NCBI RefSeq assembly: GCF_054482525.1
Contig: NZ_CM137006.1
Reading direction: 5' to 3' (one strand)
DNA: 64,000 bases
In this document: positions 246-62,400 of the stretch, in pieces
Position numbering within the stretch: the stretch's first letter is position 1
Layout: the number at the start of each line of letters is the position of its first letter
The notes under the pieces: model-generated
What the model was told of the DNA's origin: nothing
The model's database searches: none
What the model saw: the letters and a program-made list of their open reading frames with translations, nothing else
Program-made: the position numbers and the translations under genes

Positions 246-917
246 TTAGCCTCTGATGATTTTAAGCGCCCATGCGCCACTCATAATGACCAGCAGCACC
301 AGACACATACCAAAAGCCAGCATACAAGCCTGAGCCATATTCATAAAATGCCATGGTGGTAGCAGATACCAGCCTTCAGATTGCTGATACATTTCCACAA
401 ACCACTGTTGCGTGCTGCTCAGTGTGACGCCATCAGGAACGATTGGTGCGTCATAGCCACAATCCCCGGTAGGCTTGAACCAATTTGGTGCCCACTGTGC
501 CAGCGGCAGGTTAAAGGGAAAAGTTGGATCGGTAGAGCAACCCTGTACGCCAAACAGTGAATCGGGATCCGGATTATGTACTGCATGGTGGATATCGTTC
601 AGTTTGAGCGAAAACTTCAGTCCCAAAATGCTGCCGTAAAATGCCATCACGCAGCCAATTAGCTTTAGGATGATGTTCTTTGGGTTGATCGCTGCAACCA
701 ATCCTCCAATAACCATCACAAACATGGCGTAGCGAATGTATACACATTGCTCACAGGGTGCCATGTAGAGATAGATCTGGAAGAAAGAGTGCGCCAGGAT
801 AATTAACGCGCCCATCGCAACGGCCATTAACAACCACAACAAGCGTTGCTCCTGCCATCTGACCAGTGTGTCAACTGGTGATGTGCGAAGATCTTTCCAC
901 ATTCCCTTAATACCCAT
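246..917 (-). CDS. dsbI: DsbB-family membrane thiol oxidase DsbI
   Basis: 223-aa ORF, multi-helix hydrophobic protein with paired Cys; last gene of assT-dsbL-dsbI arrangement. Confidence 0.8.
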
Positions 918-931
918 AGCCTGTTTCCCTG

Positions 932-1600
932 TTATTTGCTTGCTAACTCGCGGATAAGGTCTGCCATTGAGTCAATAGATTTAATACTCTTGGTGTAGAT
1001 CAGGTATTTACCATTGACGACATACGCCGGAACGCCCTGGATTTTTGCAACTTCATAAGAGGCTTTCCATTTTTCCAGCGTTTCTTGAACTGCAGGCTCT
1101 TTCAGCGCGGCTTCAAAATCGGCCTGACTCATACCTGCGGCGTCCAGTCCGGTTTTGATAAAGGCAGCCGGATCTTTACCATCAGACCAGCGTTCTTTTT
1201 TGTCATGATAAGCCGCGTAATAAGCAAACTTGGCTTTCTTAAACTGAGAGTTAGCATCAAATAATGAAATACCTGCTGCTTTATCTTTATTGATCAAGAC
1301 CGCAAAGACTTCGCTTGCTTGTTTGCCGTATTCACCTTTTGTTTCCAGATGGAATGGAGTAAAAGCAACGATATCTTTCACTTTTTCCGATACCGGACCG
1401 GTAACCGCTTTGTCGTACTTGTAACAGAACGGGCAGGCGTAGCTGAATACCTTAATCAGCGTTTTGTCTGCATTCGGAATAGGTTTTTCCAGAACCATGT
1501 AATCCGTGCCTTCGGTAAATGCAGAAGCGGTAAATGAAACAGCCAAAGCTGCGGTAAGCAGTATGCTTTTAAATAGTGATGAGATCCCTAATTTCGACAT
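932..1600 (-). CDS. dsbL: Periplasmic thiol:disulfide oxidoreductase DsbL (DsbA-like)
   Basis: 222-aa ORF with signal peptide and CPFC active-site motif ([11 protein letters not shown]). Confidence 0.85.
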
Positions 1601-1617
1601 TTTTATTCCCTTCTTAA

Positions 1618-3414
1618 TTATTTGAACATCTGTTGTGGACGGACTAACAATGCACGATAGTGAGTCTGATTGGGTTTATCTGACAGCACGTCGATTTCCA
1701 CTTTCACTTCTTTGGTTTTGTAATCGATTTCGTTCAACTTACCGACGGTTGGCTGCCCGACATCGAACAAATGAATAGAACCACCGAAGCCAAACATGGT
1801 GTTACGGTCGGCTTGATATTCAATGATGGAGGTGATTGGGCTATAGAAATCGTAGCCACGTTCTTTACCGTATTCCCACACTTGCTGAACGGTGCCTTTC
1901 TTCTCATCAATCTTATATTCCACAAAGCGGGAGTATTTCATGGTTGGTAAGGCAGGTTGTTCCAGATGACGCCCATCGCCATTATCAAAAATGGTGAGCG
2001 TTCCTTTGCTGGAAATCCAGGCGGTATGCTGGGTGTAGGTAAAGTCGAAGTCTGAGTTTTCGCACAGGCCATTTTCGTTACAGGTAATTGGCTTACCGTT
2101 AGCATCAACCGGTTTCAGCAGCTTGCTGGCCAGCGGTTTTTCCCAACCTTTAGAGGGCGCAAGGATCCATTTCACTTGCTTATCACGACCAATCTTCACA
2201 ACACCCTGGTGACGAGAAGAGAGAATAATTGAGTCATCTTTTGCGTCATAAGCGATGGAATTAACGTGCGCCCAGTTACGGCCTGGCCCTACACCCAGAG
2301 CGTCGCCGAACGGTGTATCTGGTTCCAGTTTTGCCTGTTGTCCTGCATGGGCAAGGTCAACGTTAACGCAAACTGCACCTGCATCCAGCGCGCCGAGCAG
2401 TGCATCGCGTTTCGGATCGAGGATCTTCGTCAGATCCCATACATCGACAACGCGACCAGATTTATCGACTTCGAGGATATGGTCACGAATGGTGGTGACG
2501 TGTACGCCGTCATCGCGACGGTAATTGCTCTTACCTACGCGCAACAATACTGTGCCATTTGGCGTCTCAATGGATTCATGAGTAGCGTCAGCAAATCCGC
2601 GCGGTAGTTTGTGATCTTCGAGCACCTGCCCCATCATGTCGAACTCGTACCAGTGCTGACCTTGTACAGCGGTAAAGGTGCCGCGTGGCGTTTCGCGGAT
2701 ACCCATCAGATAACCACGCTTGTTGATATCGCGGTCACGACCATCGTAGAAAGTGTCTTGATCCAGCCACCAGCGGTATTCACCTTCGGTATCGACGATG
2801 AAAGTAAAGGGCGCGATATCAAAAGGGAGTGCGCCAGTTGCCGGACCCGCATCAAGGATACCGGCATTTTTATCTTTCTCACCATGCCAGTGGAGATCGG
2901 AACCTTGGGCGGTAAAGGTGTGGGTATTAACCAGATAGAGGCGATCTTCAAAACCTGGCGCGACTTTAACGACTTTGGTTTGCTGTAGGTCGGAGATGGA
3001 GCGGTTATCCATGTAATTGTTGACGATGGCCGAAGTGTGCACCACATAATCATCTTTCATGACCTTGCCGTTTTCTTTCCACTCAACGGTCACTTTGTTA
3101 GCAAATTTCTGATAAAGACCAAAAATCGGTACACCATCGTAAGTTTTTAGTGATTCCTGACCCACGGGATAGCTGATTTCTACGCCTTTTTCGCCCTTCC
3201 CATGGACGGTAACTTTGACGTCAGAAATAACATGGCTATCTAAGTCAACCAAAGCGGTCAGTGGTGCATTGCCGTAGGGATCGACAATGACCGCACCCAG
3301 TTGCCCGGCAGGCGGCGCTGGTTTAAAACCCGCAGCCATCACCCCCGATGCTGACAAACCCAGGGTTATCGCCACAGTTCCGGCTACGAGTGTTTTTCTA
3401 TATTTATCAAACAT
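1618..3414 (-). CDS. assT: Periplasmic arylsulfate sulfotransferase
   Basis: 598-aa ORF with signal peptide; sequence recognised as ASST family; operon with dsbL/dsbI. Confidence 0.85.
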   Translation of the reverse strand: MFDKYRKTLVAGTVAITLGLSASGVMAAGFKPAPPAGQLGAVIVDPYGNAPLTALVDLDSHVISDVKVTVHGKGEKGVEISYPVGQESLKTYDGVPIFGLYQKFANKVTVEWKENGKVMKDDYVVHTSAIVNNYMDNRSISDLQQTKVVKVAPGFEDRLYLVNTHTFTAQGSDLHWHGEKDKNAGILDAGPATGALPFDIAPFTFIVDTEGEYRWWLDQDTFYDGRDRDINKRGYLMGIRETPRGTFTAVQGQHWYEFDMMGQVLEDHKLPRGFADATHESIETPNGTVLLRVGKSNYRRDDGVHVTTIRDHILEVDKSGRVVDVWDLTKILDPKRDALLGALDAGAVCVNVDLAHAGQQAKLEPDTPFGDALGVGPGRNWAHVNSIAYDAKDDSIILSSRHQGVVKIGRDKQVKWILAPSKGWEKPLASKLLKPVDANGKPITCNENGLCENSDFDFTYTQHTAWISSKGTLTIFDNGDGRHLEQPALPTMKYSRFVEYKIDEKKGTVQQVWEYGKERGYDFYSPITSIIEYQADRNTMFGFGGSIHLFDVGQPTVGKLNEIDYKTKEVKVEIDVLSDKPNQTHYRALLVRPQQMFK

Positions 3415-12039: not shown

Positions 12040-14181
12040 TCAAAATTCCATTTTCACCGTGAATTGCACTTCACGCGGATCGCCAATCTGATTCCCCAGA
12101 TTATTTGTGGCGATGGAAGAGGTGTAATACGTTTTATCAAACAGGTTTTTGACGTTTAATTGCAGTGTGACCGGATACTGCAATTTCATTTTGTATGCAG
12201 CGAAGGCATCGGCAACGAAATAGCCTGGCAGATAATAGTCAGCCCCATTGGTTGCCGAACGACGGCTTACGCCATGTCCACCACCGCCAAACGTCAGTGT
12301 GTTATTGCCAGGCATGTTATGAATGTCATAAGTCAGGAATAGCGAACCGGTATGACGAGGAACATTCGGCAATGGTTTCCCTGCATAATCAGGATCCTCC
12401 AGAACCTTAGCATCGGTATAGCCGTAGCTGGCAATGATATTAATGTTTTCAGTTAATGCTCCCGCAAGGTCGACTTCTACCCCTCTTGAACGAACACGGC
12501 CTGCCGTTTTGGCAATGCTTTCATCACCAATACTTTCGGTATACAACACGTTACGTTTATGGATATCAAACAGCGCAATATCTGCGGTGATACCATCGAA
12601 TAGCTCGAATTTTGCCCCGACTTCGTAAGCATTAGATGATTCCGGTGGAAGATCGCCAATGTAGCTGGCAATTGACGACTGCGGCATAAATGTTTGCGAA
12701 TAATTGGCAAATAAGGATACCGATGGCGTCAGTTTGTAGACTAACCCCAGTTTGGGCGTCCATTGTTCATCGCGGCTGTCAGTATTGACATTAAAAGGAC
12801 GGCCTTTACCCGCATACTGCGTGTAATACTGATAGCGGATCCCGGCGACGGCAATCCAGTTATCGGTCAGATAGAGCGCGTCCTGTGCATACGCTGAGTA
12901 GCTCTCCTGTTTGATCGTCTGATCACTGTCCGACGCCGAAACCGTTGTGCATTTGCTGGTATTGCCATAAACGGGGTTGTAGATATTGAAATCTTTAGCG
13001 TTTTTACAGCGAATCATATCTGTGCGCAGAAGATCATAATATTCATATGACACCCCACCCAGAATCTCATTATAGAACCCAGCAATATCAGCATTCCCTT
13101 GCAGATCCGCACGAGTAGAATGCATACGCTGGGTAGATCCCTGAGTTGCATCAACACGCCGTGTCAGCGTTCCTGTCGTTGCATCATACGCGGTAACGCG
13201 AGCCTGATTGTCGCTGTATTTATCCTGGCTGTAGCTGTAATCAAAGCGCGCTGTCCACTGGCTATTGAGATGATATTCTGCGTTGAGTTGCGCCAGATCG
13301 GACTGACCATCTGTAATATTAAACGGTTCGTCAAAACGTATTTTTCGATCAACGTTTACGGGCTGTTTCGTCGTAAGGTCGAAAATCGTTCCACGATCGA
13401 ACGGAGTTTTATAGTCCCGATGGGAATAGAGCATGGTTACTGTTGCATTATCACCAAACCAGGTGAGTGACGGGGCAATAAATGTACTGCGCTCTTTACC
13501 GAAGTTTCGCCAGTAATCTTCATCCTGCACTTCCCCCGTCAGGCGGTATGCCAGCTGAGTGCCTTCAATGGGACCTGTGATATCAAGTTGCCCAGTGCCT
13601 CCGCCAAAACTGGAGGACGTGGCTGAGACAGAACCATGGAATGTTTTTTCCGGGCGCTTGGTCACGACGTTAATCAATCCACCAGGATCGAGAATGCCAT
13701 ACAGCGTGGAGGCCGGACCTTTTAGCACTTCCACACGTTCTGTGGCGGCGTTGAAACTGCGAGGAAGTACAGTTCGCAGGCCGTTGGTCATGATGGAGCC
13801 ATCCCGGTTTGCGCCAAACCCACGGCGTACAAAAGCATCCTGAGTCCCGCCTAATGTATTGGTCTGTACCACGTTACTGACGTTATAAAGCGCCTCATCC
13901 AGCGTTGTCGCATTCTGGTTTTCCAGAACCTGATCGCTAACCGTATTGACCACCTGCGGGATATCCAGCATCGGCATATCGGTTAATGTCGCCGTAGAGG
14001 TGCTCAGAGGTTGATAACCATCGGTTGCCTCAGTTGCGGTATTTGCATCTGCTGTAACAGTGATTGTTTCGCCATCTTTGGTCGTTACAGAGTCTGTTGC
14101 ATGAATCATCGGTGCCGCAAAAAGCAGTGAAAAGAGCGCCCGACCTTTGAGTCCTGAGAATGAAGGTGTGAACATAGCCAT
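12040..14181 (-). CDS. TonB-dependent outer membrane siderophore receptor (Fit-like, FitA?)
   Basis: 713-aa ORF with signal peptide, plug region and C-terminal terminal-Phe beta-barrel; divergent from ABC importer operon. Confidence 0.85.
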   Translation of the reverse strand: MAMFTPSFSGLKGRALFSLLFAAPMIHATDSVTTKDGETITVTADANTATEATDGYQPLSTSTATLTDMPMLDIPQVVNTVSDQVLENQNATTLDEALYNVSNVVQTNTLGGTQDAFVRRGFGANRDGSIMTNGLRTVLPRSFNAATERVEVLKGPASTLYGILDPGGLINVVTKRPEKTFHGSVSATSSSFGGGTGQLDITGPIEGTQLAYRLTGEVQDEDYWRNFGKERSTFIAPSLTWFGDNATVTMLYSHRDYKTPFDRGTIFDLTTKQPVNVDRKIRFDEPFNITDGQSDLAQLNAEYHLNSQWTARFDYSYSQDKYSDNQARVTAYDATTGTLTRRVDATQGSTQRMHSTRADLQGNADIAGFYNEILGGVSYEYYDLLRTDMIRCKNAKDFNIYNPVYGNTSKCTTVSASDSDQTIKQESYSAYAQDALYLTDNWIAVAGIRYQYYTQYAGKGRPFNVNTDSRDEQWTPKLGLVYKLTPSVSLFANYSQTFMPQSSIASYIGDLPPESSNAYEVGAKFELFDGITADIALFDIHKRNVLYTESIGDESIAKTAGRVRSRGVEVDLAGALTENINIIASYGYTDAKVLEDPDYAGKPLPNVPRHTGSLFLTYDIHNMPGNNTLTFGGGGHGVSRRSATNGADYYLPGYFVADAFAAYKMKLQYPVTLQLNVKNLFDKTYYTSSIATNNLGNQIGDPREVQFTVKMEF

Positions 14182-14278
14182 TTAGTCTGTTATCCCAAAA
14201 ACTCGCGGATTGTCGCGAGTGAAAATTGTTTCTTATTGCTCACTAAGCACTATCCGTTTGTTATTTCACCATCGGATA

Positions 14279-14302
14279 TGTAATTGAGAATCATTCAATC
14301 AT
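14279..14302. promoter_or_regulatory. Candidate Fur box in divergent promoter region
   Basis: taattgagaatcattcaatc resembles GATAATGATAATCATTATC (about 13/19 by eye); AT-rich divergent region. Confidence 0.3.
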
Positions 14303-14554
14303 GCGGTGATGTAGTAGTAAATGAGAAATAACAAAAAATTGCTACATGTGTTTTTATGAGAGGTTAATGCAATTCAATTGATGGTAATTTATTAATATTT
14401 AATGGTTTTATTTTTATCTTTAAAAATATTTCACCTGTTATTTACCTTGTTTTTGTGTGGCTTTTAACTGCTTGACTACTACATTTTGTGGCGTCAAACT
14501 CTCAAAGGAGAATGAGTTTTATTTTTGTTTGTCTTTGATTAAGTTGGCGTACAC

Positions 14555-15364
14555 GTGGCACATAACGCAAAAGGGCAGGGGCTGATCCTCGACAATGTTT
14601 CTGCCGGGTATCACAAGAAAATCATTGTTGATGGTGTTTCTTTCTCCGTTCCCACAGAAAAAATGACCGTTCTGGTTGGGGCAAACGGCTGTGGAAAGTC
14701 GACGTTGCTCAGCACCATTGCACGTATCTTGCAACCCATGGGCGGTTCGATATTGCTGGATGGTAAAGCGATTCACGAGCAACCAACGAAAGCGTTATCC
14801 CGTAGACTTGGGATCTTGCCGCAGTCGCCATTATTGCCGGAGGGCTTAACCGTTTATGAACTGGTGTCGCGTGGGCGTTTTCCCTGGCAGAATTTCATTC
14901 GTCAATGGAGCGACGCCGATGAGCTGGCGGTAGAAGAGGCCCTGAAATTAACGGGTACGCAGGAGTTTGCACATTTACCTGTTGAAAAACTCTCTGGTGG
15001 GCAGCGCCAGCGTTGCTGGATTGCGATGGTGTTGGCGCAAAAGACGCCTTATATCCTGCTGGATGAACCCACAACCTGGCTTGATTTACGTTATCAGGTT
15101 GAAATTCTTGAGTTATTACATGATTTAACACGTCATCACGGGCGTACAGTCGTCGTGGTGTTGCATGATCTGAATTTTGCCGTCAATTATGGCGATACGT
15201 TGATATTTTTACGCCAGGGGAAAGTGGTGCGTGTGTTGAATGAGGGGGAGCATTGCACGCCTGAGCTGGTAAAAGCGGTCTTTGACGTTGATGTTCACGC
15301 ATCAATAAATCCTCTGACGGGAAAGCCGTTCTTCATGCCGTTTCGTGGTGTAGAAAAAGTATGA
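14555..15364 (+). CDS. Iron-siderophore ABC transporter ATP-binding protein (FhuC/FecE-like)
   Basis: 269-aa ORF with Walker A GANGCGKST and LSGGQRQR signature; GTG start forced by in-frame stop at 14540. Confidence 0.85.
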   Translation: MAHNAKGQGLILDNVSAGYHKKIIVDGVSFSVPTEKMTVLVGANGCGKSTLLSTIARILQPMGGSILLDGKAIHEQPTKALSRRLGILPQSPLLPEGLTVYELVSRGRFPWQNFIRQWSDADELAVEEALKLTGTQEFAHLPVEKLSGGQRQRCWIAMVLAQKTPYILLDEPTTWLDLRYQVEILELLHDLTRHHGRTVVVVLHDLNFAVNYGDTLIFLRQGKVVRVLNEGEHCTPELVKAVFDVDVHASINPLTGKPFFMPFRGVEKV

Positions 15365-16344
15365 TGCGCACAGGGCTGGTTACTGTAATTTTCCTCGCCT
15401 TACTGCTGGTGGGATGCGTGGTATATCCAGGGATTGGTGCCCGATTTATTGCACCACAAACGGTATTGCAGGCATTTCTTCATTTTGAACCGCAAAACTT
15501 CGATCACAACGTAATTGTAAGACTCCGTTTGCCGCGTTTAGCGGCAGCATTGCTTACCGGTGCTTCTCTTGGAGTTGCTGGTGCTTTGTTGCAGGCTGTC
15601 ATTCGTAACCCATTGGGGGAGCCACATATTTTAGGCTTAAATGCCGGAGCCGCTCTTGCTGTCGTTGCTGCCAGTGCGCTTGGGCTGGCCTTTCCGGTTG
15701 GACGCCCACTGCTGGCATCTACGGGCGGCGCGTTATTGTTCCTGTTGATATTGCTGCTTTCCTCCGCAGGGCGTTCAGGGTTAACGCCAATGAAAGTTAC
15801 TTTATGCGGCGTGGCGCTATCGGCGTTCGTGTCCTCAATAACGGCTGCAATCCTGATTCTTGACGAACAAACACTGCTGGCGATGCGGACATGGCTAGCA
15901 GGTGATTTAGCGGGGCAGGATTGGGCGACGCTGGGTACGTCCGCCTGGTTTTCTCTGGGGGGATTTGTGTTAGCCCTTTACCTTGCACCCTCCCTTAACA
16001 TGTTGGCACTGGGCGATCGCATGGCGCAGGGGCTGGGCGTCTCTGTACTCCGCACGCGAACATTCACCCTGCTTGCGATCGCGTTGCTCTGTGGCGCAGC
16101 CGTATCGATTGCTGGCCCCATTGGTTTTGTCGGCCTGCTAGTACCGCAGATTGTCCGGCGTCTGGTATCAGCGGATCTGCGCGTTCTGCTCCCTCTTTCA
16201 GCTTGTGTCGGCGCACTTTTGTTATTACTGGCAGATATTATTGCCCGTACGCTTTTCACGCCCCATGAATTAGCGACCGGTGTCATGACGGCGTTAGTTG
16301 GTGCGCCTGTTTTTGTCATTATGGCGACGAGGATGTTCAAATGA
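15361..16344 (+). CDS. FecCD-family ABC permease
   Basis: 327-aa hydrophobic ORF, 4-nt overlap with upstream ATPase gene. Confidence 0.85.
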   Translation: MMRTGLVTVIFLALLLVGCVVYPGIGARFIAPQTVLQAFLHFEPQNFDHNVIVRLRLPRLAAALLTGASLGVAGALLQAVIRNPLGEPHILGLNAGAALAVVAASALGLAFPVGRPLLASTGGALLFLLILLLSSAGRSGLTPMKVTLCGVALSAFVSSITAAILILDEQTLLAMRTWLAGDLAGQDWATLGTSAWFSLGGFVLALYLAPSLNMLALGDRMAQGLGVSVLRTRTFTLLAIALLCGAAVSIAGPIGFVGLLVPQIVRRLVSADLRVLLPLSACVGALLLLLADIIARTLFTPHELATGVMTALVGAPVFVIMATRMFK

Positions 16345-17390
16345 GTCGGATAATGAACGTCGGGCTACGCCCACTACGTGTTGGTAAGTTTTCGACACTG
16401 GTACGCCCTAAAAATCTGCTGTTGCTTGGTGGGCTGTTTCTGTTTGCGGTTGGAATACTGATATTCGGTCTGATGCAGGGTTCTTTCTCTGTTCCGGCAT
16501 CGGAAGTAGGACGAGCGTTGTTTGCTCCAGAAAACGTAAGCACAGACGCACGTTATATTGTGCAGGATATTCGCTTGCCGAGAGTCATCATGGCATTGCT
16601 ATGCGGGGCCATGTTAGGTATGGCAGGGGCCGCAATGCAATCCATTGCACGTAACGGCCTTGCCGATCCTGGGTTAATCGGCGTCAAAGAAGGATGTAGC
16701 GTGGCTGTGCTGTGGCTGATTTTCCAGTTTCCAATGCTGGGAGTGTTCTGGCGTCCAGTGGCTGGTCTTGCTGGTGGCCTGTTGGTGGCTTTAATCGTGA
16801 TTTTTTGTGCGCGCGATATTTCCCGCCCGCGATTTGTTCTGATTGGTATTGGTGTTTCCTGGTTTTTCGCCGCCGGTATCGGTGTATTTATGACCACTGC
16901 AGATGTTCGAGATGTACAAACTGCATTGATGTGGTTATCGGGAAGCCTGCATGCAGCTAACTGGATGTTAGTCGGTATTTCAGCCTGTTGGATGTTGCCA
17001 GCCGCTCTTTTATTGCTGTTCACCGCCAGGACGGCGGATATCGCTCTGCTTGGTCATCAGGTTGCAACCGGGTTAGGGGTGAATAGTTCTCGTCTGGCGT
17101 TGTTACGTGTCGCCGCACCCATAATCCTGACAGCCGTCTGCGTTTCGTGTGTTGGTAACATCGGTTTTGTCGGATTGATAGCACCCCATATATCACGTTT
17201 TATGCTACGTGGCGGGCAGACGACATTACTGCTGGGGAGCGCGGTATCGGGGGCGTTGTTAGTTATTCTGGCGGATAGCATTGGTCGTTTGGCTTTTTTG
17301 CCTTTGCAACTGCCTGCCGGAATCATTATCTCACTGATTGGTGGACCATTTTTTTTGCTACTGCTCTGGCAGCGCAGGAACAGTTTTTAA
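16341..17390 (+). CDS. FecCD-family ABC permease (second)
   Basis: 349-aa hydrophobic ORF, overlaps previous permease stop. Confidence 0.85.
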   Translation: MSRIMNVGLRPLRVGKFSTLVRPKNLLLLGGLFLFAVGILIFGLMQGSFSVPASEVGRALFAPENVSTDARYIVQDIRLPRVIMALLCGAMLGMAGAAMQSIARNGLADPGLIGVKEGCSVAVLWLIFQFPMLGVFWRPVAGLAGGLLVALIVIFCARDISRPRFVLIGIGVSWFFAAGIGVFMTTADVRDVQTALMWLSGSLHAANWMLVGISACWMLPAALLLLFTARTADIALLGHQVATGLGVNSSRLALLRVAAPIILTAVCVSCVGNIGFVGLIAPHISRFMLRGGQTTLLLGSAVSGALLVILADSIGRLAFLPLQLPAGIIISLIGGPFFLLLLWQRRNSF

Positions 17391-17400
17391 CGGGAGTTAT

Positions 17401-18348
17401 ATGCGTTTATTTTTTTCTCTGCTGATACTGTTGTCATTTTTTTCCCGTGCAACAGAACCTGTTCAGGTATTTACTGATGATTTAGGGCGCAAAGTCACTG
17501 TTCCTGCTCATCCAAAGAGAATTGTCTCTTTACACGATCTTGATATCACTATTCCTCTGATTGAGCTCGGTGTACCTCCTGTCGCCAGCCACGGGCGAAC
17601 TCGGCCTGACGGTAGCCATTTCATTCGATCTGGCGCGTTATTGACAGGTGTCGACTTTGATAATTCATCGATCGCCTTTATTGGTACCGCTGATATTGAT
17701 ATTGAAGCGATTGTGGCGGCAAAGCCTGACTTGATCATCACAGAACCGACCCGTAATACGCCCATTGAACAACTTGAAAAAATTGCGCCCACGGTGAGCA
17801 TTGATCATCTCAAAGGGGGCGCGCCAGAAATCTATCGCAAGCTGGCAGAACTTACAGGAACGCAGTCGCAGCTGGCGATACTTGAACGCCGCTATCAGGC
17901 ACAAATCAATGCGCTGAAGGCGACGCTGGACAGCCAAAAAATAACGGTATCGGTGATTCAGGCAAACCAGGGAAAAATTAATGTGATGCATAGCTATCAT
18001 TCGCTGGGGCGGGTATTACGCGATGCTGGTTTTCGTTTTCCGCCGCTGATTGAGAGCATTCCTGAAGGTGGGCGAATGGATGTGAGCGCGGAGCGTTTAC
18101 CTGAACTGGATGCCGATTTTGTTTTTGCAACCTGGCGCGGTGACACCGGTGGTAAACCTCAGGATGAGCTGGCAGCAATGGAAAAAGTCATGCCGGGATG
18201 GTGTCAGTTTCTGACTGCCTGTCGTTCCGGGCGTTATGTGCTGATTTCTCGTGAAGAGGCAATTTCTAACTCCTTTGCATCACTGGGGCTGATGGCTGCG
18301 CAGATACAATCACAAATTGCAGGGCGACCTCTACCGGAGGCTAAATGA
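17401..18348 (+). CDS. Periplasmic siderophore-binding protein (cluster A SBP)
   Basis: ORF track 17338..18348; start trimmed to MRLFFSLLILLSFFSRA signal peptide preceded by GGGAG. Confidence 0.8.
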   Translation: MRLFFSLLILLSFFSRATEPVQVFTDDLGRKVTVPAHPKRIVSLHDLDITIPLIELGVPPVASHGRTRPDGSHFIRSGALLTGVDFDNSSIAFIGTADIDIEAIVAAKPDLIITEPTRNTPIEQLEKIAPTVSIDHLKGGAPEIYRKLAELTGTQSQLAILERRYQAQINALKATLDSQKITVSVIQANQGKINVMHSYHSLGRVLRDAGFRFPPLIESIPEGGRMDVSAERLPELDADFVFATWRGDTGGKPQDELAAMEKVMPGWCQFLTACRSGRYVLISREEAISNSFASLGLMAAQIQSQIAGRPLPEAK

Positions 18349-19232
18349 TCCAGAAAGATAAAGCGCGGGTTGATATTTTTGGTGAGCGTTTTCGCACTCG
18401 CGCGAGTCAGTTAACGCCTGGGTTAAGAGCTGTCGCCAGCTACATTAATGAGCATCGTGAAGTGGTACTCGAGCAAACGGCGATGGAAATTGCGGCCACG
18501 TTGAACACTTCCGATGCCACAGTTATCAGGGCTATACAGGCCCTGGGGTTTGCCGGGCTGCGTGATCTGAAACGCACTCTGGAACAGTGGCTTGGTCCAG
18601 CCCTTAGTTCCAGCGAAAAGATGTCTACGACGGTGAGTAACTTGACGAGCGATGTTAACACCGCAATCGACTTTGTTCTTGAAGGGCATTTGTATACCTG
18701 TAATGTCCTGTCAGAGCCTGAAAACCGCCACGCGCTTGCGCAAGCTGTAGCGTTGTTGGTGCAGGCACGGCAAGTCGCAATTTTTGGCATTGGCGCTTCG
18801 GGTATTCTGGCGGACTATACCGCACGACTATTCAACCGCATAGGTTTGCCTGCCACGGCACTAAACCGTACGGGGATTGGCCTTGCCGAGCAACTGATCG
18901 CGCTTCAACGTGGCGATGTTCTGATCATGATGGCGCAAAAATCTGCGCACCGGGAAGGGCTGACAACGCTTCGTGAGGCGAGGCGGCTGGGGATCCCTGT
19001 TATTTTGCTGACAAACGCGCTGGATTCGCGTTTTAGCAAAGACGCCAGTATCGTGATTCATGTTCCGCGCGGGGATGAAAAAGGGAAAACGCCGCTACAT
19101 GGTACGGTATTGTTGTGTCTGGAAATGATTGTCTGGTCGGTAGCTTCCGCAGTGCCGCAGCGTGCGGTTAAAACCATTAAGCGAATTAACGATTTCCATC
19201 GAGGACTGAAAACGGGAAGAAAGAATGGCTAA
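18345..19232 (+). CDS. RpiR/MurR-family transcriptional regulator (HTH + SIS domain)
   Basis: 295-aa ORF; N-terminal HTH, C-terminal SIS-like phosphosugar-binding region; start overlaps binding-protein stop (ATGA). Confidence 0.75.
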   Translation: MIQKDKARVDIFGERFRTRASQLTPGLRAVASYINEHREVVLEQTAMEIAATLNTSDATVIRAIQALGFAGLRDLKRTLEQWLGPALSSSEKMSTTVSNLTSDVNTAIDFVLEGHLYTCNVLSEPENRHALAQAVALLVQARQVAIFGIGASGILADYTARLFNRIGLPATALNRTGIGLAEQLIALQRGDVLIMMAQKSAHREGLTTLREARRLGIPVILLTNALDSRFSKDASIVIHVPRGDEKGKTPLHGTVLLCLEMIVWSVASAVPQRAVKTIKRINDFHRGLKTGRKNG

Positions 19233-57972: not shown

Positions 57973-58220
57973 TATTTATTCTCCAGCCATGGAAGTAGAG
58001 TTTCCATTAATTGCGCAGGGGTTTTGACATCCAGCAGAATATTAATAGGAATGGAAATATCGAATCTGTCTTCCAGCATCATTAAGAGATCCATCACTTT
58101 GATCGACTCCAGGCCAAGATCGTTGACGAGATCGCTGTCGGGCTTAATTTCCACACCGTTTTCGACCAAATCCTGTAAACAGGAAAGGATGTAATCCATT
58201 ACTATTTCACGATTTACCAT
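57972..58220 (-). CDS. Acyl carrier protein-like
   Basis: 82-aa acidic ORF with DLGLESIK phosphopantetheine-site-like motif. Confidence 0.7.
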   Translation of the reverse strand: MVNREIVMDYILSCLQDLVENGVEIKPDSDLVNDLGLESIKVMDLLMMLEDRFDISIPINILLDVKTPAQLMETLLPWLENK

Positions 58221-58251: not shown

Positions 58252-59166
58252 TCAAAATAGCCCGTTGCGTAATGCGTGTTCCAGGCTAATCCCGGGAAAC
58301 CAATTAATATCTTCAGAAATACGGTTATTACTTGCCGACCAGTCGGCGTGGGTTAATTCACGAATTTTCGAGCGGGTCAGCATAGGTTCTTTACCTGCCA
58401 GGCGACTCAACGCGGTACTGATATCCGCAAGGCCGGTGAGTACCGGCAGAGGAATGCCAACCATTCGCACGGAACCGCAACGGGCGTCGGCGGCAAGTTG
58501 CTGTACGCGTTGCCAGTCATAGCCGCCGACGACGCCATCGCATAATTCATAGGTTTGCGTCTGTATAGTTTCGGCGCTTAACCACTGACCCACTGCTTGC
58601 GCGAAATCGGTGACGTGCAGAAAAGAGAGCTGTGTATCTGGCGCACCAAGTCGTGGCAGCAGGCCGCGCAGCATCCAGTCAAACAGCGGTTTTAACTCTT
58701 TATCGCCGGGACCATACACGGCTGTCGGGCGAAAAACGCCCAGCGTAATTTCGTCCGCCATTGCTGCCAGTCGTTGCTCGGCGACGTATTTGGATTTTGC
58801 ATACCAGGAGAGCTCGGGATGGCGCGCCGCCAGCGAAGAGATAAACAGAAAACGTTGGCAAAAGCCGCTCTCTTTTGCTGCTTGCATCAGGCGCAGGCTG
58901 CCGTCAACGTTACAGCGGGTGAAAATCTCTTCTTTGTGCCCGCGCACTTGCCCGGCGCAATGGACCACTACGCTGGCTCCGGCAACCAGCTCGCTAAGTG
59001 AATGAGTATCTTCCAGCGAACCGCGCACCCAGGTGAGATTATCATTGACGTGAGCGCGGGCAGTACGCGTCAATGCGCGAACGTGAAAGCCGCGGGCGAG
59101 CAGGTTATCGATAATATATTTACCGATAAACCCGGTAGCGCCCGTCACCGCGACAGTTTGATTCAT
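58252..59166 (-). CDS. NAD(P)-dependent epimerase/dehydratase-family reductase (extended SDR)
   Basis: 304-aa ORF with N-terminal GATGFIG Rossmann motif and YxxxK; 4-nt overlap with upstream ligase gene. Confidence 0.8.
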   Translation of the reverse strand: MNQTVAVTGATGFIGKYIIDNLLARGFHVRALTRTARAHVNDNLTWVRGSLEDTHSLSELVAGASVVVHCAGQVRGHKEEIFTRCNVDGSLRLMQAAKESGFCQRFLFISSLAARHPELSWYAKSKYVAEQRLAAMADEITLGVFRPTAVYGPGDKELKPLFDWMLRGLLPRLGAPDTQLSFLHVTDFAQAVGQWLSAETIQTQTYELCDGVVGGYDWQRVQQLAADARCGSVRMVGIPLPVLTGLADISTALSRLAGKEPMLTRSKIRELTHADWSASNNRISEDINWFPGISLEHALRNGLF

Positions 59167-60914
59167 GCCAGGGATTCCTGCACATTAAGACTGGCAGCAT
59201 AAGCCTTCTGATAACGTTTTTTCGCTTCCGCACGGGCAGGCTTGCCGGAGGACGTTCGGGGAATACTGTGGGGCGGCAACAGATCGATAGCCGCGGTCAC
59301 GCCAAATTCGCTTTGGATCCGTGCCGCCAGCGCGTGGATAAGCTGCCCGCGACGTTCTTCGTCGCTGATCCGACACTGGATCTGCAAAATGATTTTTTCC
59401 TGGGCGGTAACAAAAGCAATCGCATCGCCAGAATGAATTTCCGGTTCCTGTTCCGCTATATATTCAATATCCTGCGGCCAGATATTACGGCCACGAATAA
59501 TAATCAGATCTTTAATGCGTCCGGTGACATACAGATAACCGTCCAGCAGATAACCGAGGTCGCCGGTGTCTAACCAGCCCGTCGCGGCAATCTCGTCTTG
59601 CGAAACCTGGTCGCCAAAGTAACCGCTCATCAGACTGGGACCGGAGATGCAAATATGGCCTACCACACGTTCCGCGACCGGCATACCTGCTTCATTGCGG
59701 ATTTCAATACCATGTTCCGGCAACGCTTTGCCGCAGTTGACGAAAGTCGATACGGCGCGTGTCTCTGCACCCGGCGCGACGGCTTTACCCTGATATTCGA
59801 GGATGTCGCGATCCACTTCGTTAACCACAACCCCGGAGGCTTCATCAGAGAAGCTGACAGCCAGCGCATTTTCTGCCAGTCCGTAGCACGGCATGAAAGT
59901 TTTATCGTCAAAGTTGACCTGACGGAAACATTCAGCGAATTGATGGAGTTGTTCTGCGGAGATGGGTTCTGCACCAATACCAGCGACGCGCCAGCAGGAA
60001 AGATCCAGTTCAGCGAGATCTTTTTCATTCACGCGGCGCTGGCACAATTCATAGCCAAACGGCGGCGCAACGGAAACGGTGCCGCGATTTTTACTGATCA
60101 ATTTAAGCCATTGCAGAGGACGCATGGCAAAATCCTGAGTGCGCAAATAATCTACTGAGAGTTGCGTGGCGACGGGGGTCAGGAGAAAGCCGACCAGTCC
60201 CATATCATGGTAGAAAGGCAGCCAGGAGACGCAGCGGTCGCCAGGGCGTAATTTTATGCCATCGTGGCTTATAGCACGTAGATTAGCCATCACTTCGCGA
60301 TGGGTGATAATGACGCCACGGGGAAAACGGGTGCTGCCGGAGGTGTACTGGAGGTAGGCGATATCGTTCGGAACTGGACGCTGGAGCGCAACATCGGCTT
60401 CCGGTAATGCCTTAAACCAGGCGTGGCTTAAAACATGTAATTCGGGGTTGTTGTTATGCGTCGCGGCATTGACCAGTGGCAACCACTCATCACCAGTGAT
60501 AATGGCTGCGGGCTGGCAACTTGCCAGTAAACCCTGCAGCTTGGCGCTCCAGGAATCCCGCTGACCGACGCCCATGGGAATCGCCAACGGGACGGCGACT
60601 AAGCCGGCATACTGGCAGGCAAAAAAAGCCTCTACGAACCCGCTACTGGTTTCGGCAATCAGTGCCACGCGATCGCCTTTTTTCAGGTTTAGCGATAACA
60701 ACCGCTTCGCACCAGCTTCGGCACGCGCTTTTAACGTCTGATATTCCAGTTGATCTTCAAGTTGGCAACGTCTGTCATAAAAATTCATTCCAGCGCTACT
60801 CAGAGCGGCATAGTCCAAAGCATCAACCAGCGTTGGAAAATCGGCATAGCGCATAGGTAGGGAATGCGTAAAGATTTTATTAGACATATACACCACGAAA
60901 AAATTGGATATCAA
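59163..60914 (-). CDS. Fatty acyl-AMP ligase / acyl-CoA synthetase family (start uncertain: M1 at 60914 or M10 at 60887)
   Basis: 583-aa ORF with AMP-binding core YTSGSTRFPRG and C-terminal SSGK; resembles FAAL enzymes. Confidence 0.8.
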   Translation of the reverse strand: MISNFFVVYMSNKIFTHSLPMRYADFPTLVDALDYAALSSAGMNFYDRRCQLEDQLEYQTLKARAEAGAKRLLSLNLKKGDRVALIAETSSGFVEAFFACQYAGLVAVPLAIPMGVGQRDSWSAKLQGLLASCQPAAIITGDEWLPLVNAATHNNNPELHVLSHAWFKALPEADVALQRPVPNDIAYLQYTSGSTRFPRGVIITHREVMANLRAISHDGIKLRPGDRCVSWLPFYHDMGLVGFLLTPVATQLSVDYLRTQDFAMRPLQWLKLISKNRGTVSVAPPFGYELCQRRVNEKDLAELDLSCWRVAGIGAEPISAEQLHQFAECFRQVNFDDKTFMPCYGLAENALAVSFSDEASGVVVNEVDRDILEYQGKAVAPGAETRAVSTFVNCGKALPEHGIEIRNEAGMPVAERVVGHICISGPSLMSGYFGDQVSQDEIAATGWLDTGDLGYLLDGYLYVTGRIKDLIIIRGRNIWPQDIEYIAEQEPEIHSGDAIAFVTAQEKIILQIQCRISDEERRGQLIHALAARIQSEFGVTAAIDLLPPHSIPRTSSGKPARAEAKKRYQKAYAASLNVQESLA

Positions 60915-61257
60915 AAATAAAATGACAATAATGCGGTGGATTATATAGGCATAAAAGATAAATGAGATAGTATTTTCATCAGTGTGAAAATGAACATTGA
61001 TTTAAATAATGAATTTGAGTTTTTTGTTTTTATTGTGAATGATATTTAATTTATGAATATATTAAGAAGGAGCCTTGTCCGGTCGCCTTAAATCGACAAA
61101 AGGCATTGTGGCGCTTCTGTGTAGTCTCTGACCTTATCGTAATCATTAATAAATACTATTTATTCGTCGTTTGTATTCATTGGGTTGATTATTAAGGTGC
61201 CGTTCGTTGCTGTTGCAACCTGTTTGTCACCGTTAATTATTTGTTACCCACAGAACT

Positions 61258-62400
61258 ATGGAATGCGATCTGCTGATGATTAAAATTGAAAAAGTAATTA
61301 ATAAAAATGACCTTAAGGCATTTATCGCTTTTCCGTCATCACTTTATCCCGACGATCCAAACTGGATACCCCCTTTATTCATTGAACGCAACGAGCATTT
61401 GTCTGCGAAAAATCCGGGGACGGACCATATCATCTGGCAGGCGTGGGTGGCAAAAAAAGCGGGGCAGATAGTTGGGCGTATTACCGCGCAAATAGATACC
61501 TTGCACCGCGAGCGTTACGGCAAAGATACCGGTCATTTCGGCATGATTGACGCCATTGATGATCCGCAGGTTTTTGCCGCGTTGTTTGGCGCAGCGGAAG
61601 CGTGGTTGAAGTCACAAGGTGCAAGTAAGATCAGCGGGCCTTTCAGCCTGAATATCAATCAGGAAAGCGGATTACTGATTGAAGGTTTTGACACTCCGCC
61701 CTGTGCGATGATGCCACACGGCAAACCGTGGTATGCCGCGCATATTGAACAACTGGGTTATCACAAAGGCATTGATTTACTGGCGTGGTGGATGCAGCGA
61801 ACCGATCTCACTTTCTCTCCGGCGCTAAAAAAACTGATGGATCAGGTGCGCAAAAAGGTGACCATTCGCTGCATCAATCGTCAGCGGTTTGCCGAAGAGA
61901 TGCAGATCCTGCGTGAGATTTTCAACTCTGGCTGGCAGCACAACTGGGGATTTGTGCCGTTTACCGAACATGAATTCGCGACCATGGGCGATCAACTTAA
62001 ATATCTGGTGCCGGACGATATGATCTATATCGCTGAGATTGATTCTGCACCCTGCGCGTTTATTGTCGGCTTGCCGAACATCAACGAGGCGATTGCCGAT
62101 CTGAACGGATCGCTCTTTCCCTTCGGCTGGGCAAAATTGCTGTGGCGTTTGAAAGTCAGCGGTGTGCGAACTGCGCGAGTACCGCTGATGGGCGTGCGCG
62201 ACGAGTATCAGTTCAGCCGCATCGGCCCGGTGATTGCGCTGTTATTGATTGAAGCCTTACGCGATCCGTTTGCCCGCCGGAAGATCGATGCGCTGGAGAT
62301 GTCATGGATCCTCGAAACCAATACAGGCATGAATAACATGCTGGAACGCATTGGGGCGGAGCCGTACAAGCGTTACCGATTGTATGAAAAGCAAATTTAA
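61258..62400 (+). CDS. yghO: YghO family protein, intact (function unknown; possible N-acyltransferase-like fold)
   Basis: 380-aa ORF recognised as YghO; divergent from ligase operon. Confidence 0.7.
   Translation: MECDLLMIKIEKVINKNDLKAFIAFPSSLYPDDPNWIPPLFIERNEHLSAKNPGTDHIIWQAWVAKKAGQIVGRITAQIDTLHRERYGKDTGHFGMIDAIDDPQVFAALFGAAEAWLKSQGASKISGPFSLNINQESGLLIEGFDTPPCAMMPHGKPWYAAHIEQLGYHKGIDLLAWWMQRTDLTFSPALKKLMDQVRKKVTIRCINRQRFAEEMQILREIFNSGWQHNWGFVPFTEHEFATMGDQLKYLVPDDMIYIAEIDSAPCAFIVGLPNINEAIADLNGSLFPFGWAKLLWRLKVSGVRTARVPLMGVRDEYQFSRIGPVIALLLIEALRDPFARRKIDALEMSWILETNTGMNNMLERIGAEPYKRYRLYEKQI

Follow-up and report, generated by a model that had tools for sequence, protein, structure and literature searches.

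An AT-Rich Divergent Spacer with a Conserved aasR-Proximal Block in the Sphingolipid Gene Cluster of Escherichia coli

Introduction

Most Escherichia coli strains carry a complete sphingolipid pathway, K-12 having lost the locus and being unable to make sphingolipids, and this raises the question of when the chromosomal genes are expressed and which sequence decides it. No report of when these genes are expressed was found, and published expression data for the locus, as well as a transcription start, a promoter activity or a regulator for the spacer described here, were likewise searched for and not found. The genes concerned form two divergent units on either side of an AT-rich spacer, which must therefore carry the promoters and the 5' leaders of both and represents the place where expression of the E. 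coli sphingolipid genes is decided. The spacer was analysed here within a stretch of 64,000 nucleotides (contig NZ_CM137006.1 of assembly GCF_054482525.1), hereafter referred to as the window. A first-pass annotation, made from the letters alone, had described positions 60915–61257 as an AT-rich divergent control region between yghO and a "ligase operon", had regarded it as typical of H-NS-silenced, horizontally acquired promoters, and had suggested that the operon may be cryptic under laboratory conditions.

Results

Gene Content of the Two Divergent Units

The sequence of the window corresponds to E. coli chromosomes. Where other genomes are 100% identical to it over positions 60700–61500, the minus strand carries spt and the genes for an acyl carrier protein, an NAD-dependent epimerase/dehydratase and a fatty acyl-AMP ligase, and the plus strand carries yghQ, a hypothetical gene, a ytfJ-like gene, lptF and lptG; on the right side, yghO (plus strand) is followed by glcC. 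In the window, the ligase gene (59163–60887, minus strand) corresponds to aasR, the fatty acyl-AMP ligase acting as specialised acyl-ACP synthetase of sphingolipid synthesis (874 bits against NF006624; PMC9386255). The second gene of the operon, cerR/epi (58252–59166, minus strand), codes for an NAD-dependent epimerase/dehydratase-family reductase, identified by family match and with a role proposed in PMC9386255, and acpR (57972–58220, minus strand; 249 nt, G+C 0.41) codes for a specialised acyl carrier protein, also identified by family match. On the opposite side of the spacer, yghO (61258–62400, plus strand) is the homologue of the Caulobacter N-acyltransferase/bacterial ceramide synthase (aca/bCerS), according to the aca (CC_1154) assignment of PMC9386255. 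Pfam and NCBIfam family searches support the identities of the ligase, the reductase and the carrier protein; for YghO, zero matches were obtained in either collection.

The "ligase operon" is hence aasR-cerR-acpR(-spt) and, with yghO, it constitutes the published E. coli sphingolipid (dihydroceramide) cluster. All five genes of the Caulobacter-type set (spt, acpR, aasR, cerR/epi and aca/bCerS) are present in relatives whose spacer region (60700–61500) is 100% identical to that of the window, and in CFT073. In BL21(DE3) the corresponding locus tags are ECD_02851 (aasR), ECD_02852 (epi/cerR), ECD_02853 (acpR), ECD_02854 (spt) and ECD_02850 (yghO = aca) (PMC9386255). Co-expression of AasREc, AcpREc and SPTEc yields 3-oxo-sphinganine, the roles of ECD_02852 and yghO (ECD_02850) being proposals only in the same work (PMC9386255). 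The UTI89 locus, with its LptF/G homologues, was drawn in a 2026 preprint (bioRxiv 10.64898/2026.04.12.717747). The gene set equals that of the Caulobacter crescentus sphingolipid locus (spt, acpR, aasR, cerR/epi, bcerS/aca and the LptF/G paralogues); unlike in C. crescentus, in Enterobacterales aasR-cerR-acpR-spt form one operon, divergent from yghO over a long AT-rich spacer. No publication was found either on the regulation of the spacer or on chromosomal sphingolipid production by E. coli.

Base Composition of the Spacer

The 343 bp comprised between 60915 and 61257 have a G+C content of 0.318 (31.8%), against 0.512 (51.2%) for the whole window, and contain numerous A/T runs of 6–13 bp, thus bearing out the description as an AT-rich stretch with A/T tracts; that of a divergent control region stands as well, since genes on opposite strands (aasR on the minus, yghO on the plus) flank it. 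A G+C content of 0.318 or lower was observed in just 1.05% of the 343-bp windows within the 64 kb, distributed over five separate troughs, and the lowest 343-bp value at the spacer was 0.292. The TpA step is twofold enriched, with a frequency of 0.093 in the spacer and 0.045 window-wide. An A+T content well above average over a few hundred bp, combined with abundant TpA steps, is the composition expected of an H-NS-bound region.

To compare the spacer with others in the window, use was made of the annotation of a relative, strain 2452; this strain has the left IS1 junction in common and differs in other parts, for which reason its gene coordinates were re-mapped by BLAST. The window contains 23 true intergenic spacers of 100 bp or more (median G+C ≈0.45). 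In this set the aasR–yghO spacer has the third lowest G+C and, of the three lowest, the greatest length, and comparable values are shown by gss–pitB (0.296) and yghT–yghS (0.295). The spacer is clearly AT-rich, yet not unique, and an AT-rich divergent promoter region is by itself a commonplace feature.

Start Codons of aasR and yghO

The left edge at 60915 results from a TTG-initiated ORF extension of the ligase gene. The TTG at 60914 ("M1") is the first start codon past a stop and is used by no annotation, PGAP placing the start at ATG 60887 (M10) in some genomes and at ATG 60854 (M21) in others. An ATG at the M10 position, together with the N-terminal peptide MSxxxxTHSLPMRYADF (MS..(T)HSLPMRYADF), is conserved across genera in about 40 loci, and residue 6 of the M10 protein corresponds to position 4 of the NF006624 profile, the start of the profile falling 2–3 residues earlier. 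On account of the cross-genus conservation of ATG and peptide and of the profile alignment, ATG 60887 is the supported aasR start, and the TTG was rejected as an ORF-extension artefact. An ambiguity of the ligase start, previously indicated as M1 versus M10, does exist, in the form of the M10 and M21 starts used by PGAP; the TTG drops out as an alternative. The supported start moves the left edge to 60888, and the non-coding spacer (60888–61257) measures 370 bp with a G+C content of 0.316, enclosing the stretch 60915–61257.

The start of yghO is also ambiguous, either 61258 (M1) or 61276 (M7), a point overlooked in the first-pass annotation. All E. coli annotations use 61258. Outside Escherichia only the ATG equivalent to 61276 is conserved, preceded by a TAAGG ribosome-binding site that is absent from E. 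coli, and within Escherichia codons 3–4 of yghO show non-synonymous variation. If the M7 ATG is the one used, the spacer ends at 61275 and measures 388 bp.

Distribution and Origin of the Locus

Of 5426 complete E. coli genomes, 4134 (≈76%) contain the spacer (query 60855–61300) over nearly its full length, mostly with 95–99% identity, and the cluster occupies the same site, adjoining glcC, in E. whittamii and in the cryptic Escherichia clades. The G+C content of the cluster genes ranges from 0.41 to 0.54 (0.46–0.54 without the short acpR, which has 0.406) and GC3 from 0.48 to 0.61, resembling the adjacent glc genes. The divergent layout aasR-cerR-acpR-spt/yghO was retrieved at 40 loci in more than 15 enterobacterial genera and in Pseudomonas, including Escherichia, Shimwellia, Citrobacter, Pluralibacter, Pseudocitrobacter, Serratia, Tatumella, Klebsiella indica, Erwinia, Rosenbergiella, Rahnella, Cedecea, Sodalis, Hafnia and Pantoea; the spacers at these 40 loci are 270–1095 bp long, with a G+C content invariably below that of the locus. 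Neither atypical composition nor sporadic distribution nor mobility-gene borders, by which a recent acquisition is recognised, were found, and the IS elements at the locus cause deletions rather than forming island borders. A horizontal acquisition of the kind that would draw H-NS to the region does not agree with normal gene G+C content, presence in 4134 genomes and the identical site in the cryptic clades: the sphingolipid module in Escherichia is old and mostly vertically inherited, with no recent AT-rich import, and its AT-richness is confined to the spacer.

The K-12 yghO locus (yghQ'-IS5-yghO) has the same yghO gene and the same glcC neighbour; missing from it are all of the spacer, the aasR-spt operon in full and the first ≈40 nt of yghO, and homology is found only from window position 61298 onward. 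The left side is replaced by IS5 and a truncated yghQ, the absence thus corresponding to an IS5-associated deletion. Because K-12 is devoid of the region, H-NS and transcription-start data sets obtained in K-12 are uninformative for the spacer.

Conservation within the Spacer

Six diverse E. coli and four sister-clade sequences were aligned (n = 10), and three parts could be distinguished. Block A (60888–61010, minus strand), adjacent to aasR and presumed to contain its promoter and 5'UTR, is conserved, with 10 variable sites out of 123 (pi 0.037). Block B (61011–61140) is the hypervariable centre, showing two divergent haplotypes and 73 variable sites out of 130 (pi 0.22), and includes a locally G+C-richer stretch (61066–61130). 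Block C (61141–61257, plus strand), on the yghO side, varies at an approximately neutral rate (50 of 117 sites, pi 0.15). As a term of comparison, third codon positions of the flanking genes were variable at 106 of 254 sites (pi 0.13–0.16), and codon positions 1+2 had a pi of 0.02–0.03. The variability of Block A is about that of codon positions 1 and 2 and fourfold below that of synonymous sites (Fisher p = 2e-12 against third codon positions, in the ten Escherichia sequences). The lowest variation was observed at 60825–60975, where 6 of 151 sites are variable (p = 4e-19), a stretch that reaches the first ≈20 codons of aasR. Block A is partly alignable with the corresponding sequences of Pseudocitrobacter and Citrobacter.

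As judged from these alignments, the ≈125–150 bp adjoining or overlapping the aasR start are evidently under strong purifying selection, the centre of the spacer appearing free to vary. Such a strong constraint indicates sequence-specific control on the aasR side, beyond A+T content.

Promoter, Motif, RNA and ORF Predictions

In a weight-matrix scan of both strands from 60860 to 61300, the best sigma-70-like score was assigned to a site inside Block A with a perfect TATAAT as predicted −10 element (60940–60945, minus strand), invariant in the ten-sequence alignment and paired, over a spacer of 17, with a weak −35 (ATCTCA, 60968–60963). If this site is used, transcription of aasR would start near 60933, leaving a 5'UTR of ≈46 nt. 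A separate and stricter consensus promoter scan left the TATAAT site uncalled and returned no more sites than in shuffled sequence, so that the position of the aasR promoter is one that we infer. On the yghO strand, Block C should hold the yghO promoter and 5'UTR; weak sigma-70 candidates only were found there, with no strong promoter or Shine-Dalgarno match. Block C also contains an ArcA-like direct repeat, GTTAATTATTTGTTA (61232–61246), with 2 mismatches (P ≈0.01 uncorrected, 19 motifs tested), which is not significant once the 19 tests are corrected for. Consensus scans for H-NS, Fur, PhoB, PhoP, CRP, FNR, IHF, Lrp and FadR, and for FabR, CpxR, OmpR, RcsB, sigma-E, sigma-54 and ops, gave no match in the spacer beyond chance. 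At 68% A+T, the occurrence of a perfect TATAAT by chance is not rare.

No Rfam match at E ≤ 1 was found in the window from 60000 to 62000, nor any in four loci of other genera, and the folding energy of the aasR leader was no better than that of shuffled sequences (z = −0.6). An AU-rich inverted repeat (60874–60892/60905–60923), able to pair the leader with the start codon, was considered and discarded, the pairing being lost in Pseudocitrobacter. The search for a conserved small ORF in the spacer gave none, ORFs of 21–32 codons being located in the variable blocks; a 12-codon uORF, MKILSHLSFMPI (60979–60941, aasR strand), was also set aside, as it is not conserved outside Escherichia and has no Shine-Dalgarno sequence.

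The longer spacers of the other genera have conserved elements of their own, namely AGCCATAGATT adjoining aasR, TAAACAGTA...AAAAGTGAA and GCATTwAGTGGTAAA, again with no Rfam match. An equivalence of the E. coli block with the TTCACT-N17-TACTGT and GCATTwAGTGGTAAA elements of these genera was evaluated and not retained: the E. coli TTCACA and TACTAT are spaced ≈7 bp shorter, and promoter homology is thus not established.

H-NS Occupancy in CFT073

Published ChIP data, which had been indicated as a check of the silencing proposal, are available for CFT073 as gene-level H-NS calls, obtained in MOPS rich defined medium with glucose at an OD600 of ≈0.4 (PMC9765446). CFT073 has an intact cluster and a spacer (NC_004431.1, about 3,544,845–3,545,220) 98.9% identical to that of the window. 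Between kpsM and c3752, only c3714 (249 nt), yghS and yghT are listed as H-NS-bound (PMC9765446, Data set S1, sheet 1E). Being the sole 249-nt gene in that interval, c3714 is the acpR orthologue, and it is the only gene of the cluster listed as bound, with a wild-type occupancy of 0.216 (PMC9765446). Genes unlisted as bound are yghO, aasR, cerR, spt, pitB and gss (PMC9765446).

The CFT073 values are averages per gene, in which short genes in or near AT-rich patches are flagged and long genes are diluted, so that a patch confined to the spacer is not readable from the table. The fact that aasR and yghO are unlisted argues against an H-NS filament spreading from the spacer over the flanking genes. 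On the other hand, acpR is called bound although its 343-bp G+C falls no lower than 0.40, and the spacer reaches 0.29, which makes a patch on the spacer likely; on the basis of its A+T content and of the acpR call, a local H-NS patch is plausible.

The predictive value of A+T content was calibrated on the first 150 kb of CFT073, where six zones have a 343-bp G+C of 0.32 or lower. Four of the six flank a gene called bound, and for five the H-NS signal is raised in one or more of the flanking genes; caiT/fixA show a signal of 5.6/6.6, raised and below the calling level, and dapB/carA are at background (0.72/0.73) despite a G+C content of 0.283 in the dapB–carA spacer. With such a mixed calibration, A+T content alone is suggestive and not decisive. 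The match of the spacer to the published high-affinity H-NS motif was no better than that of shuffled sequences, and no publication on H-NS at the yghO/aasR locus was found. In A+T content and size the spacer is comparable with H-NS-bound AT-rich regions of E. coli (e.g., leuO, caiT–fixA, bglG and proV), the lowest 343-bp G+C being 0.289 for caiT–fixA, 0.254 for leuL–leuO and 0.292 for the aasR–yghO spacer. Unlike those regions, its flanking genes are off the CFT073 bound list and one third of its length is under sequence-specific constraint.

Expression of the Chromosomal Cluster

BL21(DE3) carries the chromosomal cluster, and in this strain neither empty vectors nor SPTEc alone nor AcpR plus SPT led to 3-oxo-sphinganine (PMC9386255); for the product to form, AasR, AcpR and SPT all had to be plasmid-supplied (PMC9386255). 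Once 3-oxo-sphinganine was supplied, compounds migrating like sphinganine and ceramide appeared in BL21(DE3), "possibly by intrinsic enzymes" (PMC9386255); if intrinsic enzymes are indeed responsible, the chromosomal cerR and yghO would be expressed to some degree. Chromosomal expression appears too low in ordinary culture for a detectable product. As to the suggested crypticity of the operon in the laboratory, low expression is plausible in view of the missing product in BL21(DE3), and complete silence is at odds with the products tentatively attributed to intrinsic enzymes.

Discussion

We interpret the spacer as a tripartite region holding the divergent promoters and leaders of the E. coli sphingolipid cluster, in which the constrained aasR-side block holds the aasR promoter, and we assign to this reading a probability of roughly 0.7. 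As such, it belongs to the very familiar class of AT-rich divergent promoter regions and is itself uncharacterised. The aasR-side block would comprise the promoter (TATAAT at 60945–60940 with its weak −35), the ≈46-nt leader and the translation-initiation region. The weak −35, considered together with the invariance of the site, suggests dependence of the aasR promoter on an activator or on a particular condition. A local H-NS patch on the 68% A+T, TpA-rich spacer may contribute by keeping basal expression low and, if H-NS is present on the spacer, it would not spread over the flanking genes.

A different account, in which an AT-rich promoter region came in by horizontal transfer and is coated by H-NS, which silences both transcription units in the laboratory, appears unlikely to us as a whole. 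The 68% A+T over 370 bp and the twofold TpA enrichment speak for it, as do the CFT073 zones of similar composition, five of six flanking a gene with raised signal and four of six a gene called bound, the binding of H-NS inside the cluster at acpR and also at yghS/yghT, and the failure of the chromosomal genes to yield a product in BL21(DE3); the patchy distribution of the cluster in Enterobacterales would even allow for an ancient transfer of the module. The same CFT073 data, however, leave yghO, aasR, cerR and spt off the bound list, the equally AT-rich dapB–carA spacer (0.283) is flanked by background genes, and the high-affinity motif is matched no better than by shuffled sequences. Normal composition of the gene bodies, presence in 76% of the complete genomes and occupation of the same site in the sister clades do not fit a recent arrival, and strong purifying selection on 125–150 bp indicates specific sequence requirements in addition to A+T content. 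Partial support is thus the most that can be granted to the combination of H-NS and horizontal transfer, its AT-richness and probable low expression holding, its recent acquisition failing and any occupancy certainly being not extensive.

It might also be supposed that the spacer is neutral filler which drifted towards A+T around minimal constitutive promoters, its AT-richness having no regulatory meaning. Blocks B and C, varying at or above the synonymous rate, would conform to this, and so would the lack of any corrected transcription-factor match, the number of promoter sites, no higher than in shuffled sequence, and the three of 23 spacers in the window that are about equally AT-rich. Yet Block A is fourfold less variable than synonymous sites (p ≈1e-12 to 1e-19), and a long AT-rich divergent spacer has been kept in more than 15 genera, among which separate motifs (GCATTwAGTGGTAAA, AAAAGTGAA and TAAACAGTA) are conserved; neutral drift is therefore very improbable as an explanation of the whole. 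Slightly less probable still is that the conserved block encodes a small RNA, a riboswitch-like leader or a leader peptide, with MKILSHLSFMPI as candidate uORF. The invariance over 60825–60975, which extends to synonymous positions in the first aasR codons, and the AU-rich inverted repeat that could pair the leader with the start codon would be in line with such a product, but Rfam gave no match at E ≤ 1, the fold has a z of −0.6, the uORF is preserved neither in Pseudocitrobacter nor in Citrobacter and is without Shine-Dalgarno sequence, the pairing is lost in Pseudocitrobacter, and the invariant columns give no covariation evidence.

Within the divergent promoter and leader reading, a more specific hypothesis can be tentatively advanced, at odds somewhat short of even, namely that the ≈150 bp from 60825 to 60975 act as a dedicated cis-regulatory switch, made of an activator-dependent promoter and its leader and possibly opposing a local H-NS patch, with ceramide synthesis being turned on only under a specific condition. 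If so, the factor binding 60825–60975 would reveal whether most E. coli strains make sphingolipids and, if they do, when. The present analysis adds that K-12 data sets are inapplicable to this locus, that in CFT073 H-NS does not blanket the flanking genes, and that the start-codon assignment needed correction, and it designates the ≈125–150 bp next to aasR as the selected part of the spacer, providing a concrete experimental target.

The strain from which the window derives is itself affected by a deletion to the left of acpR. An IS1 element (57117–57884, minus strand; 768 bp, with both terminal inverted repeats present) sits 87 bp past acpR and bridges the operon remnant and a fragment of yghS. 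Homology to an intact cluster restarts, by blastn, at 57885, the IS1-side end of the remnant of spt (serine palmitoyltransferase; 57885–57971, minus strand); only the first 88 nt of spt survive (57885–57972), with a 1-nt overlap with the acpR stop codon. The remaining part of spt, lptG2, lptF2, the ytfJ-like gene, the hypothetical gene, yghQ, yghR and part of yghS have been deleted. Having lost nearly all of spt and the transport genes to IS1, this strain has a genetically dead sphingolipid pathway; the identical IS1 junction occurs in just five of the 5426 complete genomes.

Start codon of yghO and the aasR–yghO spacer

The start of yghO is ambiguous (61258-61276), since E. coli annotations place it at ATG 61258, whereas in other genera only the ATG corresponding to position 61276, coding for the seventh residue (M7) of the annotated YghO, is kept. 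In these genera a TAAGG ribosome-binding site precedes the equivalent of ATG 61276, a site that Escherichia has lost; a good Shine-Dalgarno sequence is missing at both E. coli start candidates (61258 and 61276). Just upstream of yghO, a direct repeat resembling an ArcA box was observed (GTTAATTATTTGTTA, nt 61232-61246; CGTTA/TGTTA, 11 bp apart), with two mismatches to the consensus and P ~0.01 before correction for the 19 motifs. Within Escherichia the second repeat is invariant and the first variable.

Comparison was extended to the aasR–yghO spacers of loci other than E. coli (L007, L009, L011, L012, L019, L021, L022, L026, L027, L035-L038, L040, L043, L044 and L046). In these other Enterobacterales the spacer is 500-1100 bp long and contains conserved blocks which E. 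coli either lacks or has only in unrecognisable form. One of them, AGCCATAGATTcAAA, adjoins aasR; another, cTTAAACA..TAAACAGTA.CCGGAAG..AAAAGTGAA, reads TTCACT-N17-TACTGT on the aasR strand and is promoter-like; a further one is AAAGCATTwAGTGGTAAAA. No match for the conserved blocks of these spacers was retrieved from Rfam.

Homologues of yghO were also encountered elsewhere. A 430-bp contig of a Macrococcus assembly (L045) shows 99% identity to E. coli yghO and is probably a contamination. A second yghO paralogue (74% identity) is present in Shimwellia pseudoproteus (L030), where no other cluster genes were detected within 8 kb on either side of it.

H-NS binding and AT-rich spacers

The published CFT073 ChIP-seq list of H-NS-bound genes includes only one member of the cluster, acpR, a short intra-operon gene with a G+C content of 0.41 (occupancy 0.216; L057 27886-28134, orthologous to window positions 57972-58220). 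Such an intragenic H-NS patch, lying just upstream of spt, might alter elongation into spt. The gss–pitB (54279-54569; G+C 0.296) and yghT–yghS (56811-56983; G+C 0.295) spacers equal the aasR–yghO spacer (60888-61257) in AT-richness; in CFT073, yghS and yghT are called H-NS bound, pitB and gss are not.

Deletions, insertions and decay of the cluster

In the window, an IS1 element (57117-57884) lies between a remnant of spt (57885-57972) and a fragment of yghS (56984-57115). The IS1-mediated deletion has removed the remainder of spt, lptG2, lptF2, a ytfJ-like gene, one hypothetical gene, yghQ, yghR and part of yghS, and its junction is common to only 5 of 5426 complete genomes. Consequently, this strain's sphingolipid pathway is genetically inactive.

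Other strains carry lesions of their own. In strain DA33135, whose spacer is 100% identical to that of the window, the annotation lists the ligase gene aasR (L001 7467-9155) as a pseudogene containing an internal stop, a further sign of cluster decay in individual lineages. Strain PCP06238 has an insertion of ~777 bp in the spacer region. In some strains an IS1 has entered the spacer itself. That of strain 2452 (L056 ~10924, about window 60924) is located between the aasR start and the putative aasR -10 (TATAAT, 60945-60940, minus strand) and is joined to kpsM/T-like ABC genes, which leaves the strain without yghO and the glc operon. Otherwise similar to the window, this strain is devoid of two of its blocks: 246-3414, with dsbI-like and dsbA/dsbL-like genes and a 598-aa ORF, and 12040-19232, between parE and ygiN, with a TonB-dependent siderophore receptor, an Fe-siderophore ABC transporter and an RpiR-family regulator. 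Each block includes one of the five AT-rich troughs of the window (about 3.5 kb and 14.2 kb).
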